DNA of 64,000 nt. Source: Candidatus Cloacimonadales bacterium. GTDB lineage: Bacteria; Cloacimonadota; Cloacimonadia; Cloacimonadales; JAFGVF01. The translations under genes and the position numbers were made by a program. Under the pieces are notes generated by a model. It did no database searches and was not told the origin of the DNA. It worked only from the letters and a program-made list of their open reading frames with translations. Location of the stretch: contig CAXXJV010000001.1 in the NCBI GenBank assembly GCA_963663475.2, forward strand, positions 2,688,001 through 2,752,000. The letters run 5' to 3'. Numbering within the stretch: position 1 is the stretch's first letter; each line of letters opens with the position of its first letter. This document shows positions 4,109 through 39,202 of the stretch, one piece after another.

Positions 4109-4723
4109 ATGGCAAACGCAGTTGAAATTAACGGTCAGAACCTTCCTGTCCGCGAATATGAAGGAGTAAGAGTAGTTTTAGGTCAAGATGTTGCTAAAGT
4201 TCATCAAGTACAACCAGAATCAATTAACAAGTTATTCTACAGAAACAAAAAACACTTTGTTGAAAATGTCGATTATTTTAAACTAAGAGACAAAAAAGCC
4301 ATATACTCAATTTGTCCATATGCCTCTAAAAACGTAACTAAAGTTAATGTTTATACAGAGTCGGGATACTTAATGCTTGTTAAGACATTAACAGACGATT
4401 TGTCCTGGCAGGTACAGAGATTGCTTGTTAATAACTATTTCAAGGTACAGGAAATCAAGAAGGTATATGCCCAGAAGAAGCCGATAGTGGATTTGGTAAG
4501 TCTTTATCCTTTATTGGATGAAGTATATAAGCAGATACTGTATTATCGATTTGAGAAGGGATTAACCCAGGAAGAGACAGCAAAGATATTGGGAGTTGGG
4601 ATTAAAGCCATATACACAAGAGAGAGTGAGCTAAGAGCTGTTGGGATATCACTACCACAACAGAGACGAAATGGAGCTAAGTATCAGCTTACAGCACTAA
4701 AGTTATTGGCAGAGGTGAAATAA
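4109..4723 (+). CDS. ORF6N-domain antirepressor-like protein with C-terminal HTH
   Basis: EYEGVRVV...F.RNKKHF.E..DYF.L...TESGYLMLVKTLTDDLSWQVQRLLV..YF; GLTQEETAKILGV HTH. Confidence 0.85.
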   Translation: MANAVEINGQNLPVREYEGVRVVLGQDVAKVHQVQPESINKLFYRNKKHFVENVDYFKLRDKKAIYSICPYASKNVTKVNVYTESGYLMLVKTLTDDLSWQVQRLLVNNYFKVQEIKKVYAQKKPIVDLVSLYPLLDEVYKQILYYRFEKGLTQEETAKILGVGIKAIYTRESELRAVGISLPQQRRNGAKYQLTALKLLAEVK

Positions 4724-4932
4724 TGAAGTTAGAACTAAGAGAAAAGATAGAGAACTTGTTATTGGCTCAAGATGAATATGCCAGGTTGTTGGTTGAGGCT
4801 GGTAGAACTGGGACTCCTGTTAGTGGTGATATATACATAATGCTAAGTGATGCTAAGGATAGATTGATGGAAGAGATGAGGATGATGAGTGGGAATGGAG
4901 TTACAGAATTGTCGGAAGTCGCTACTTCGTGA
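4723..4932 (+). CDS. phage hypothetical protein coupled to the ORF6N gene
   Basis: TAATG overlap, GAGGTG RBS. Confidence 0.7.
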   Translation: MKLELREKIENLLLAQDEYARLLVEAGRTGTPVSGDIYIMLSDAKDRLMEEMRMMSGNGVTELSEVATS

Positions 4933-5035
4933 GCAAGACCCGTCATTAAGAGAAGACCTTCACACTAATTAAGGCGAATTAAAACGAATTACACGAATAA
5001 ATCTTGCTTGAAGCAAGAAAGTGATTAAGATATAA

Positions 5036-5258
5036 ATAGAAGCACCGAAAGAGCTTAATCCTCGTTTGATTGGTGTGGACGGCTGGAGTTGGATAAGCAG
5101 ACTACGAGCCCCTTGACGGAAAGGGCTAACCTGGAAGCGACGTTTGTTGATTCGTGGCGTGTTAGCGTCTTAATATTAACATAGAAGTGGAGAGAGAGCT
5201 TAATCCTCGTTTGATCAAAGCGGAAACTATGATATGATTAAGGTATCTGATAGACCAT
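5036..5258 (+). ncRNA. candidate structured non-coding RNA with two direct repeats
   Basis: exact 21-mer AGAGCTTAATCCTCGTTTGAT at 5050-5070 and 5195-5215; GC-rich multi-hairpin core; promoter-like TTGAAG-17-TATAAA (5008-5036); terminator downstream; no ORF in the track. Confidence 0.5.
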
Positions 5259-5295
5259 AAAAAAGGGAACACGATGTGCTCCCTTTTTCTTTTTA
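5259..5295. terminator. bidirectional intrinsic terminator
   Basis: AAAAAAGGGAACAC-GAT-GTGCTCCCTTTTT with A and T tails. Confidence 0.75.
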
Positions 5296-5296
5296 C

Positions 5297-8086
5297 TCAT
5301 TTCAATAAATAGCCCATTCTCTGCTTGTTCATGTATTTAGCATTAGCATCAAAGAAGTTAAAGTATTCTATGTTTCCTTCTTGGTTGATATAGGTAATAA
5401 CACAGATGTTATCACTATATTTTTTGAGGTAATAGGTTCTGAAGACTTTAGTGCTGTTGTTATTATGCTTCCAGATTTCATCAGGATTTTGAACAACATC
5501 ATCAATAGTATTCATGTATTTTAAGCGACTTGCTACTTCCTTTAGAGGTTTGTTTTCGAAATGCTTAACTGCTTTTGCACTGAGATAAACATCAGTATTG
5601 GTGGAGTCTTTTAAGTGTCTATCCCCCAAGAAGTTTTTATAATCCTCTAGCAATTCATCTTTAGTTTTACCATCTGTATCGTAGAGTTTTGGCAGTTTAT
5701 TCTCTGGCATATCTTTCCAATCCTTAAGCTTTAAATCCTTGTAGGTATTTGCATATAAATCAGGGCAATGCTTTTTACCTGAGTTGAAGATGTGTAAACG
5801 CTTGCTTCTGATAGACATTTCTGGGTATAAAATAGAAATGTTTTTAGCATCTTCACAGCTTAACCAATCCCCAAAGAGAGAATTGTCTTTGCCTACATTG
5901 CGTTTAAATTCTTTTTTAACATTTGAATCAGGAGGAACATCTCTCTTGAGTCCAGGGTCTCCGTTAGCTTCTTCTTCAGTGAGTTGTTCTTTACCACAAC
6001 GACAACCCCAGCCATTAGGAGGATAATACTCATCCCAGAAAGGATCATCTACATGTCTGACTATACCATCTAAGGCTCTATGTTCATCTCTCACCGCATC
6101 ATCTTGCATGGTAATATAACGGAGATAAGGGAAGATTTCTTTAGTGTCCTGGATATCTTTCCATTCTGCAGATGCACGAGCCGATTTAATAGCTTGTTGG
6201 AAGTTGGTTCTTAGGTGATAAGGATTATCAGGTTCAAAACCTTTTAGCTTTAGATTTTCCTGAAACTCTTGAAATGTAGTACCTTGAGTAAAGGCTTTTT
6301 CCGCTTCGGACTTAATCATGTCAAGCATGGATTGAGAAGTAACTCCTGCTACGATAAAGGTTTCAGCTCTGAATGCATGGAGGGCTTTGGTATCTTCCAG
6401 GGTCCAGTCTATTTCGAAGTTGAAGTCAGCCCCTAAATCCCCTGAAGGGGACTTTGAAGAAACCTCACACGAAGGCACGAAGGCACGAAGAGGGGAATTA
6501 AGAGAAGATGCGGGCTGGAAGCCCACGTTCCCAGTTAAGGAAGAGGAAGCTTTCTTCTTTAGAGAAGCTTTTCTTAGCTTATAGTATTCTTTAAGAAGTG
6601 TTTGATACATCTCATTCGCATAGGTTAAATAGAGGTCTTTAGGATAAGACATATTTTCTATATCTTTGAATGACTTGGCTTCTTTGATTTGAGATTTGAT
6701 TTTCTTGAGTTCTTTGAGGGAAGCCCCTAAATCACCTGAAGGGGACTTTGAAGATATACAGTCAGTTGAACTGCCTGTGCGGGCAGGGATGCCCGCGTTC
6801 CCAGTTATGGCGGCAGGGATGCCCGCGTTCCCAGTTATGCCGACAGGGATGCCCGTGTTCCCAGTTATGCCGACAGGGATGCCAGCGTTCCCAGTGGAGC
6901 CAACCCCAACCCTATTCTGAAAAGGGAAGAGCTGAGATGCAACCTCCTTTAGTTTTGCACCAGACTTTGGTACAGGGATGCCATAAGTGGTGTACCAATA
7001 ATCAGGTTCGATTTCGATGATATTATTTAGTTGAGTATCGATGTTTATCTTTGTGTTTAAATCAACATGTTCAGGGATAGTAAGAGTTACTTTAATATCT
7101 TGGTCAACGAAGTTCAATCTGTTTAACCTGGAGCAGATATAAGAGATATACTTAGAGCAGTCTCTGATGTCAGCCTGGAGGATATCCTGTCTGACCATGT
7201 TATGAACCTTAGCTTGAGCATAGGATCCTGTCTTTTCAGTATTAGTTGTGAGAGTTTGGCCAAGTATTCTTTTAGAGATTGATTTTTTACAGAAATCTAA
7301 AAGAGTTGCGTAGAGATTAGCATTAGCTGAAGCATTTTTAAAGTCTGCGAACTCAATTAGAGTATTTTCAGAGATAACAGCTCCTAAGTCTGTACCCAGG
7401 TTCTTTACCATAGACTTGAGTAGGTTCTTCTCTTCAGGAGTTGAACCTGGTTTATATTTACCAATTCTGATAGGTTTTCCATAGGTTTCAACAAAGGAAG
7501 CCCAGTTGTTGAGAGCAAAGGAAAAGAAAGCATAGTATTTGATAATAGACTCATAGACTGAATAATTTTGATATAGACGCACAAATTTATCATCAGAGAG
7601 GCTTTTCTTCTCATCTTCGACATACAAGACCAATTCAGATTTTTCAGCCCTCAAATCGAGGTTTTTGTATTCTATGAACTTGTCTATGGTATAAAGATTG
7701 TTTTCCAGCTTAAAGGTAATCTGACGAAAGAGAGAACCAGTTAGTTTTAAATCAAGAGCCTGGTCAATGAGGACTGTAAAAAAGTTCTCTAAAAAGGCTT
7801 TAAAGAAGTCTTGTTGTTGCTTCGAGAGACCTTCAGGGAAAGTGAAAGAAGCTGATTTAAGAGCTTCTACTCTGACATCAGTATCCCCAGCCAGGTTATC
7901 ATCAAGCTTATATAGTCTATCATATAAGTTATTAAGGTGTTTTAATCTTCCATTGTTGGCATTATGTAGAGCTAAATCCATTTCTGAAGGTGTGATTTTA
8001 GCTGACCAAAGAGGTTTTTCTTCCTCAATTTTATTTTGAGTTAAGATGGTTGTTGATGTTTTTTTAAATAAATCAAGTATATTCAT
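5297..8086 (-). CDS. portal (DUF935/Mu gp29-like) + MuF head morphogenesis + C-terminal PBECR2-like nuclease fusion, 929 aa
   Basis: start at MNILDLF after AAGGAG; W..F.E.YG.P.RIGKY and ISKRILGQTLTT...GSYAQAKVH (portal); YLRY.T..D..VR.EH..LDG......DPFW..YYPPNGWGCRC (MuF); VVQNPDEIW...R.YY.K.Y (PBECR2-like). Confidence 0.85.
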   Translation of the reverse strand: MNILDLFKKTSTTILTQNKIEEEKPLWSAKITPSEMDLALHNANNGRLKHLNNLYDRLYKLDDNLAGDTDVRVEALKSASFTFPEGLSKQQQDFFKAFLENFFTVLIDQALDLKLTGSLFRQITFKLENNLYTIDKFIEYKNLDLRAEKSELVLYVEDEKKSLSDDKFVRLYQNYSVYESIIKYYAFFSFALNNWASFVETYGKPIRIGKYKPGSTPEEKNLLKSMVKNLGTDLGAVISENTLIEFADFKNASANANLYATLLDFCKKSISKRILGQTLTTNTEKTGSYAQAKVHNMVRQDILQADIRDCSKYISYICSRLNRLNFVDQDIKVTLTIPEHVDLNTKINIDTQLNNIIEIEPDYWYTTYGIPVPKSGAKLKEVASQLFPFQNRVGVGSTGNAGIPVGITGNTGIPVGITGNAGIPAAITGNAGIPARTGSSTDCISSKSPSGDLGASLKELKKIKSQIKEAKSFKDIENMSYPKDLYLTYANEMYQTLLKEYYKLRKASLKKKASSSLTGNVGFQPASSLNSPLRAFVPSCEVSSKSPSGDLGADFNFEIDWTLEDTKALHAFRAETFIVAGVTSQSMLDMIKSEAEKAFTQGTTFQEFQENLKLKGFEPDNPYHLRTNFQQAIKSARASAEWKDIQDTKEIFPYLRYITMQDDAVRDEHRALDGIVRHVDDPFWDEYYPPNGWGCRCGKEQLTEEEANGDPGLKRDVPPDSNVKKEFKRNVGKDNSLFGDWLSCEDAKNISILYPEMSIRSKRLHIFNSGKKHCPDLYANTYKDLKLKDWKDMPENKLPKLYDTDGKTKDELLEDYKNFLGDRHLKDSTNTDVYLSAKAVKHFENKPLKEVASRLKYMNTIDDVVQNPDEIWKHNNNSTKVFRTYYLKKYSDNICVITYINQEGNIEYFNFFDANAKYMNKQRMGYLLK
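6428..6538 (+). repeat. in-frame cluster of three repeat families at the portal/MuF junction
   Basis: agcccctaaatcccctgaaggggactttgaaga; cacgaaggcacgaaggcacgaag; gcgggctggaagcccacgttcccag. Confidence 0.85.
6722..6897 (+). repeat. in-frame palindromic repeat plus four tandem 30-bp palindromic repeats
   Basis: 6722-6754 matches 6428-6460 at 32/33; 30-bp units at 6778, 6808, 6838, 6868 (tgcgggcagggatgcccgcgttcccagtta-like). Confidence 0.9.
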
Positions 8087-8109
8087 TTTTTTCTCCTTTA
8101 ATATTTTAA

Positions 8110-8224
8110 GAGCTTTTACACGAATTAACGCGAATTTAAGCGAATTAACACGAATTAATGCGGGAAAGATGCCCACGTTCCCAGTTAATTAAGATGCCGA
8201 CAGGGATGTCGGCGCTCCCAGTAG
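8110..8224 (+). repeat. intergenic composite repeat cluster
   Basis: ACACGAATTA tandem + gcgggaaagatgcccacgttcccag + gccgacagggatgtcggcgctcccag. Confidence 0.85.
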
Positions 8225-39124: not shown

Positions 39125-39202
39125 TGGTCGGGATGACTGGATTTGAACCAGCGACCACCTGAACCCCATTCAGGTACGCTATCCTGACTGCGCTACATCC
39201 CG
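39125..39202 (-). tRNA. tRNA-Pro(GGG)
   Basis: CGGGATG acceptor, anticodon arm CCTGA-ATGGGGT-TCAGG, GGTTCAAATCC, encoded CCA. Confidence 0.95.

Follow-up and report, generated by a model that had tools for sequence, protein, structure and literature searches.

In the window, by which we mean the whole 64,000-nt stretch of DNA analysed here, an island at 4933-5296 separates a + strand ORF (4723-4932) from a convergent 959-aa gene, and two small structured RNAs are predicted within it (Table 1). The product of the convergent gene matches Portal_Mu (9e-57), Phage_Mu_F (1.5e-16) and PBECR2 (6.1e-16) in Pfam, the last being an RNase-fold domain fused to the portal-MuF protein. Its stop codon occupies 5297-5299, 2 nt past the end of the RNA B U-tract. 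Nearby genes encode a large terminase, a DUF1804/Terminase_5 small subunit, Mu Gp36, a gpG-like protein, a ClpP/Mu-like protease and a capsid protein, which together identify a Mu-like prophage. The protein encoded at 4109-4723 carries an ORF6N domain, of anti-repressor type, fused to the helix-turn-helix of sigma-70 region 4. The sole tRNA found in the window by Rfam and ARAGORN is a tRNA-Pro (GGG) at 39125-39202 on the - strand.

The preliminary description of this DNA took the island to be GC-rich and free of ORFs. No ORF of at least 60 aa is present in 5004-5295, where the only frames are one of 31 aa with a TTG start (+) and one of 36 aa with a GTG start (-), neither of them conserved across family members. 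The GC excess is modest, at 41.4% in 5004-5295 versus 33.5% in the whole window, in a genome of about 33% GC.

Table 1. Features in and around the RNA island, in window coordinates
Feature	Position	Strand	Elements	Basis
ORF6N + sigma-70 region 4 protein	4109-4723	+		Pfam, PHROGs
69-aa ORF, last gene of the upstream co-directional operon	4723-4932	+		
Putative RNA A promoter	5004-5031	+	-35 TTGCTT 5004-5009; 16-nt spacer; TG 5022-5023; -10 TAAGAT 5026-5031	
RNA A, long form with extra 3′ domain	5038-~5175 (3′ end uncertain)	+	P1 5042-5048/5070-5076; P2 5051-5053/5061-5063; L2 5054-5060 (CUUAAUC); L3 5091-5097 (GGAUAAG), 6/7 paired; 3′ domain closed by 5077-5081/5166-5170	R1 match 52 bits, manual parse, long-form alignment
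Putative RNA B promoter, within the RNA A tail	5147-5176	+	-35 TTGATT 5147-5152; 18-nt spacer; -10 TAATAT 5171-5176	
RNA B, short form	5183-5294	+	P1 5187-5193/5215-5221, holding a 3x3 purine internal loop; P2 5196-5198/5206-5208; L2 5199-5205 (CUUAAUC); P3 5227-5235/5243-5253; L3 5236-5242 (GAUUAAG), 7/7 Watson-Crick	R1 match 92.2 bits, alignment A1, pair counts, parse, inverted repeats
RNA B terminator	5260-5294	+	stem 5260-5272/5276-5288, 13 bp, 92% complementary; T-run (U-tract) to 5294	
Portal-MuF-PBECR2 gene, 959 aa, convergent	5297-8176	-		Pfam, PHROGs, translation

A repeat search recovered two units of 46 nt (5025-5070 and 5170-5215) that are 80% identical, lie 145 nt apart and share the exact 21-mer AGAGCTTAATCCTCGTTTGAT at 5050-5070 and 5195-5215, and a GAG-CUUAAUC-CUC hairpin occurs in both units. 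The repeats with their spacing and common 21-mer, the hairpin and a terminator at 5259-5295, for which complementary arms and a T-run are present, had all been pointed out from the sequence before, and each is borne out. What does not survive is the reading of the direct repeats as processed tandem units, since each appears instead to be the 5′ domain of a transcription unit of its own.

This arrangement becomes visible when the window is compared with other members of the family. In all of them a -10-like box lies 6-7 nt upstream of a conserved AGAAG, several carry a consensus TTGACA -35, and an intrinsic terminator ends the short-form units and each locus as a whole. Loci hold a single unit (L005, L008, L031), a pair (the window, L006, L014) or a triplet (L013), and in the three single-unit loci a putative promoter precedes a solitary unit B. 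Given these -10 boxes, terminators and single-unit loci, we read the window as two transcription units, with RNA A and RNA B as two probable, separately promoted small RNA genes whose promoters and terminator are predicted from conservation. A weak terminator-like hairpin lies in RNA A at 5156-5169, and transcription reading through from RNA A into RNA B is possible.

Both promoter-like strings of the preliminary description lie where it placed them, the one listed in Table 1 and the alternative TTGAAG (5008-5013)/TATAAA (5031-5036) upstream of RNA A. A consensus scan calls neither of them as a promoter, and it likewise leaves the putative RNA B promoter and the main terminator uncalled. A perfect palindrome, TCTTGCTT-G-AAGCAAGA, spans 5002-5018 and overlaps the -35 of the putative RNA A promoter; the scanner took it for a terminator-like hairpin on the - strand, and units in L007, L014 and L019 have a comparable palindrome in front of them.

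The RNA matched no Rfam family at the window or at eight related loci, in keeping with the earlier claim of an undescribed RNA. With Rfam 15 at gathering scores, the whole window yielded only the tRNA-Pro; at E up to 10, the segment 4900-5350 gave only weak terminator-type matches (5205-5350), which leave the RNA body (5030-5250) without a family, and at E up to 0.5 the eight related loci gave one unrelated match only. ARAGORN called no tRNA at the island, blastn against a phage GenBank collection returned no match, and no description of the family was found in the literature searched. We conclude that this is a real, undescribed structured-RNA family carried by phage.

The conserved unit runs from a 5′ tail (AGAAG) through P1, which encloses an asymmetric internal loop and the P2 hairpin, to a GGA linker and a P3 hairpin. 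P1 has 5-7 bp, with a 3x3 purine internal loop in form B, and P2 has 3 bp closing a 6-7-nt L2, to which the L3 loop of P3 is complementary. Conservation marks the junctions: J1/2, the 5′ side of the internal loop, ends in A; J2/1 holds UGA in all but two units (UAA in the second unit of L002, GGAGAAA in L098); and GGA follows P1′ in most units, being GAA in L084 and found only further on, inside P3, in L097.

A manual parse covered 20 units, and P1, P2 and the loop-loop pairing are kept in all 20; adding L085, L097 and L098 brings the set to 23 distinct units. P1, P2, P3 and the L2-L3 pairing all covary. P2 appears as GAG/CUC, GCG/CGU, GCG/CGC, GUG/CAC, GGA/UCC and GAG/CUU, and 11 different L2/L3 pairs occur among the 23 units: CUUAAUC/GAUUAAG, CUUAGCC/GGCUAAG, CUUAAAC/GUUUAAG, CUUAUC/GAUAAG, CUUAAUC/GGAUAAG, UUUAAUC/GGAUAAA, GGUAUC/GAUGCC, CCUGCC/AGCAGG, CCUGCC/GGCAGG, CUUGCUA/AGCAAG and CUUGCC/GGCAAG. 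When 14 distinct units are aligned, the P1/P2/P3/L2-L3 model gives pairing in 98.2% of cells, versus 30-47% with slid partners, and none of 500 shuffles reached the covariation score. Among 13 representatives, 12 have the complement of L2 at a distance of 13-15 nt from P1 on its 3′ side; of the 13, seven have fully matched loops and the other six leave one position unpaired. The + strand is assigned from G-U pairs.

Single sequences are far less telling. The folding energy of the window sequence (z = -1.46 on either strand) is not exceptional, and the imperfect loop match of unit A lacks significance by itself, being equalled by 593 of 2000 shuffles; the case against chance rests on the relatives and on covariation. 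A relaxed descriptor matched 17 times across both strands of the 3.3-Mb genome, two matches being true, so that repeated finds in 300-nt slots behind nuclease genes lie far above chance. In the RNA A 3′ domain, only the closing helix is kept, in all four long-form sequences, and RNAalifold on these four favours an interior other than the 4-way junction that had been proposed. Taken together, the relatives and the covariation of P1, P2, P3 and the loop pair bear out the claim of a conserved, structured, phage-borne RNA, and we are highly confident that the family exists with this fold.

Several narrower functions had been suggested for the repeats, namely a type III-like antitoxin of processed repeats, a mimic of a tRNA anticodon arm, or an anti-SD antisense RNA. 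Two repeats beside an RNase-fold gene do recall the first of these. Type III antitoxins consist of tandem 34-45-nt repeats that precede the gene of a ToxN-family toxin in the same orientation and are separated by cleavage by that toxin. Here, the repeats are 145 nt apart, have promoter-like boxes of their own and converge with the nuclease gene, whose product is BECR-fold and not ToxN-like, so that orientation, spacing and nuclease family all depart from the definition. The CU-UAA loop had been likened to an anticodon loop; no tRNA is recognised by ARAGORN or Rfam, and L2 changes among relatives (CUUAGCC, CUUAAAC, GGUAUC, CCUGCC, CUUGCUA, CUUGCC) while L3 changes to match. A loop that is neither constant nor free, variable in sequence and paired, is not that of an anticodon mimic. 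The UCCUC proposed as anti-SD is occupied by P2 and the loop pair, which makes it an unlikely seed. These forms are already largely refuted, and we consider any of them very improbable.

An RNA anti-CRISPR, a solitary repeat unit (Racr) mimicking the host CRISPR repeat, was considered because form B contains GUUUGAUCAAAGCGGAAAC, the end of which resembles that of many CRISPR repeats. The repeat of the sole CRISPR array found in the genome, GTCTAAAACCTGAATCCATTAAACCAAGGATTGAAAC, is unlike the unit, and we rejected this candidate, giving it next to no weight. This CRISPR-like array lies outside the window at G000:C1:1257809-1264178; its 37-nt repeat, which ends in ATTGAAAC, is present about 88 times. 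Separately, tandem arrays of an approximately 57-nt repeat containing GCGGGCTGGAATCCCGCGACCCAATCC are scattered over the G000 chromosome on both strands (for example C1:55837-56326, C1:782717-783742 and C1:1399538-1400156).

Relatives of the RNA were recovered at a second locus of the same genome (L002), again tail-to-tail with a MuF-PBECR2 gene, in 7 further genomes among 61 searched, and in three IMG/VR contigs (L011, L013/L015, L014) as well as Cloacimonadota MAG contigs. Among 151 genomes of the phylum, the model R1 gave strong matches in 6, and divergent members were present in 5 more. R1 is narrow and finds close relatives only: L076, L084 and L085 escaped it even when the filters were disabled, and in six further genomes it gave only weak matches (L042-L047). 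The divergent members (L076, L081, L084, L085, L086, L097, L098) were found by reading the DNA behind other PBECR2 genes. Pattern scans reached 5 loci in viral contigs, one a chance match; 20 in genome contigs, five of them chance matches in other phyla; and 61 in metagenomes, where only L215, L236, L245, L246 and L252/L253 are real and near-identical to known units. Within everything searched, the family is rarely found and is confined to Candidatus Cloacimonadota, where it occurs in Mu-like prophages and at a small number of chromosomal sites.

Between host families, unit B retains 84-92% identity, which indicates horizontal movement. Copies also stand among housekeeping genes in G038, G052 and G002, with no phage gene within 6-8 kb (L177, L178, L179), and the RNA is present in genomes having no PBECR2 match (G017, G038). 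At L005 and L006, a terminator after the RNA is followed by an ORF of 88-94 aa. In L177 (G038:C9, 8100-9250), an 88-aa ORF has a B-type RNA gene on either side, the two being inverted relative to each other; a 94-aa homologue of this ORF comes after the RNA pair in L179/L006. This ORF beside the orphan copies matched neither Pfam nor NCBIfam, and it has two relatives only in a collection of 5.8 billion proteins.

In G006, the RNA pair occurs together with a MuF-PBECR2 gene four times with identical scores (L038, L049, L054, L057), which fits four copies of a transposable Mu-like prophage. Three of the loci (L011, L027, L236) are the same 24,028-bp contig, met as an IMG/VR viral contig, in a metagenome and in a MAG labelled Candidatus Ratteibacteria; this host label may be a binning artefact.

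To relate the RNA to its neighbour, all 21 PBECR2 loci, from 15 of the 151 phylum genomes, were read. The family RNA lies directly downstream of, and convergent with, the nuclease gene at 14 of them, in 9 genomes, so that the association with MuF-PBECR2 genes anticipated in the preliminary description holds. In the Mu-like prophages the family thus occupies the point where the early operon meets the convergent portal-MuF-PBECR2 gene. The neighbour upstream of the RNA varies among loci (elsewhere a Mor/C-like C-terminus recognised by eye, a D12 methylase, DUF6996/6997 or DUF3164), and the nuclease gene end is constant. In decayed prophages (L010, L008/L180), the RNA is intact and the nuclease gene is broken or reduced to its 3′ end. 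The closest two IMG/VR homologues (L097, L098) also carry the RNA; they are the only ones to do so among 80 IMG/VR loci with MuF relatives, and more distant MuF-PBECR contigs are without it.

The family RNA is absent from the other seven loci (L078, L080, L083, L088, L089, L090, L094), among which L089 is a solo domain, L094 a fragment and L083 a contig end, and L090 has none. Two of the seven, L078 and L080 (both 1780-2200, - strands; G009 and G012), have another kind of small gene-like element convergent with the portal-MuF-PBECR2 gene at this position. It combines a TTGACA promoter with a structured stretch and a terminator, in an architecture unlike that of the RNA family. Behind the PBECR2 gene of G013 (L088:1080-1520, +), the C-terminus of a maturase-like ORF and then a domain-V-like hairpin form the apparent end of a group II intron, an element that may have inserted at the terminator. 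Candidate elements of structured appearance, with long closed stems, directly follow the MuF gene in distant, GC-rich IMG/VR MuF-PBECR contigs (L109:1930-2350, L139:1980-2400, L116:1960-2400; provisionally on the - strands) and are unrelated in sequence to the RNA family.

The positional link between the RNA and the PBECR2 gene is real, but it is confounded with phage lineage: the RNA occurs in only one phage lineage, that with an inverted packaging module, and eight MuF genes lacking PBECR2 that were read showed no RNA, in phages with another gene order. Ascertainment adds a bias, as divergent members were sought behind PBECR2 genes and R1 would miss such members elsewhere.

We tentatively propose that the partner of these structured small RNAs is the PBECR2 nuclease. 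Host RNA polymerase would transcribe each unit constitutively from its own sigma-70-type promoter, an intrinsic terminator would end it, and the RNA would act through its locked three-dimensional fold and not through an antisense seed. The adjacent PBECR2 RNase-fold domain may then be bound by the RNA as a pseudo-substrate, inhibitor or decoy, or the RNA may be its natural substrate or cofactor. According to PMC5576092, a small ORF read as immunity follows 89.4% of 191 MuF toxin genes; at the present locus this usual ORF is absent, and the RNA would fill its slot. Orphan chromosomal copies would resemble orphan immunity genes directed against incoming phages.

Favouring PBECR2 as the partner are the convergent arrangement at 14 of 21 loci, the constant nuclease end, the persistence of the RNA in decayed prophages and the presence of two or three units at loci, suggestive of dosage. 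Against it stand the lineage confounding and ascertainment bias, the seven loci without the family RNA, and the copies among housekeeping genes and in genomes without a PBECR2 match. The explanation as a whole is also weakened by the promoters and main terminator left uncalled by the consensus scan and by the imperfect loop match of unit A. PBECR is an ordinary MuF C-terminus and inactive in phage Mu, and the passages of PMC5512222 that describe it mention no immunity partner. RNA inhibitors of BECR-fold RNases, moreover, are not known to us.

Alternatively, the RNA may be a prophage 'moron', a small RNA unrelated to the nuclease. Lysogens would produce it to regulate genes of the host or the phage, or to titrate an RNA-binding protein of the host; its place at an operon junction would then mean only that such junctions gather cargo genes. 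We rank this possibility nearly as likely as a PBECR2 partner. The putative promoter and terminator of its own at the junction of converging operons, the stand-alone copies in G038, G052 and G002, the horizontal movement of unit B and the conserved single-stranded GGA after P1 are all consistent with it. Conservation, however, resides in helices, junctions and the loop-loop pair and not in an exposed seed. A search for host targets or mimics by shared 11-13-mers returned chance-level matches, 13-mer matches to the genome included, with one 13-mer at three places and none in rRNA. A moron also leaves unexplained why the upstream neighbour varies and the nuclease gene end is constant.

The loop pair itself admits another geometry, in which L2 pairs with L3 of the next molecule, 'hand in hand', and the RNA self-assembles into dimers or rings, possibly docked on the 12-fold portal-MuF-PBECR2 protein. 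Covariation would look alike for pairing within one molecule or between molecules, the gene adjoins portal and terminase genes, and several units occur at loci. There are precedents in pRNA, which multimerises through kissing of identical molecules (PMC4201828), and in ROOL and GOLLD, where, according to bioRxiv 10.1101/2024.12.08.627333, loop pairs first taken as tertiary contacts proved intermolecular. The topology nevertheless differs from that of pRNA, with no 5′/3′ closing helix and P3 outside P1; the phage has an ordinary large terminase; and some copies are not accompanied by a phage. Measured from the P1 base, L2 is 11-12 nt up and L3 13-15 nt up, near-equal heights that fit two side-by-side helices in one molecule and are compatible with intermolecular pairing as well. 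On balance, we regard self-assembly as unlikely. Less likely still is a ring or dimer held in the virion by PBECR2, acting as the RNA-binding domain of a 12-fold portal-MuF fusion, as a pRNA-like or co-packaged RNA; there, the RNA would be a structural cofactor, or a stored inhibitor freed at injection.

Small size, junction-centred conservation and a tertiary loop-loop lock are typical of ribozymes and aptamers, and the unit shares these traits (60-80 nt; the conserved A, UGA and GGA; the L2-L3 pair). At two chromosomal loci, moreover, a small ORF lies beyond a terminator that follows the RNA. Nonetheless, we consider a small self-cleaving ribozyme improbable, and likewise an orphan ligand-binding aptamer: no ribozyme or riboswitch family matched in Rfam, nothing co-directional lies downstream in the phage loci to be regulated, and the motif begins right at the predicted transcript start.

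Regardless of function, the RNA gives a phylum with almost no RNA biology a new family of structured RNA, marked by a covarying loop-loop pair of unusual length, its reach being limited by the narrow distribution and by hosts that we take to be uncultured. If the RNA binds or blocks PBECR2, a BECR-fold RNase on a virion protein would for the first time have an RNA as its partner or immunity factor, and there would be a handle on the role of the widespread, uncharacterised MuF C-terminal domains. Intermolecular pairing of the loops, if it occurs, would make this a second natural case of a ring-building small phage RNA.

Comparison with known systems places the family beside several of them. As in type III TA (ToxIN-like) modules, a structured RNA sits beside an endoribonuclease-fold protein on a mobile element, but the toxins there are ToxN, CptN or TenpN, whereas the neighbour of the island combines Portal_Mu, Phage_Mu_F and PBECR2. 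The layout also recalls MuF polymorphic toxins, with a C-terminal nuclease-fold domain on the MuF protein and a small gene directly after; in the toxin-immunity module this gene is a co-directional ORF, whereas at the island it is a convergent RNA gene with no conserved ORF.

Among structured RNAs, lysine and purine riboswitch aptamers have two adjacent helices joined by a loop-loop interaction, with conserved junction nucleotides. The family shares the loop-loop-held helices but resembles these aptamers neither in sequence nor by model, and in the phage loci no gene under its control lies downstream. ROOL, GOLLD and OLE are likewise ornate bacterial RNAs without assigned function. ROOL and GOLLD are prophage-associated, and covarying kissing loops in them proved to be intermolecular bridges. 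Such RNAs are several hundred nucleotides long and form cages, whereas the present unit, which matches nothing in Rfam, measures about 75 nt without its tail. The phi29 pRNA is a three-way junction closed by a 5′/3′ helix and serves phi29-like phages, whereas in this family P3 lies outside P1, there is no closing helix and the carrier is a Mu-like prophage with a normal large terminase; the loop pairs of pRNA are also shorter than the 6-7 nt found here, and Rfam gives no match. What the two have in common is that each is a small phage RNA with two mutually complementary, covarying loops, encoded near the head and packaging genes.
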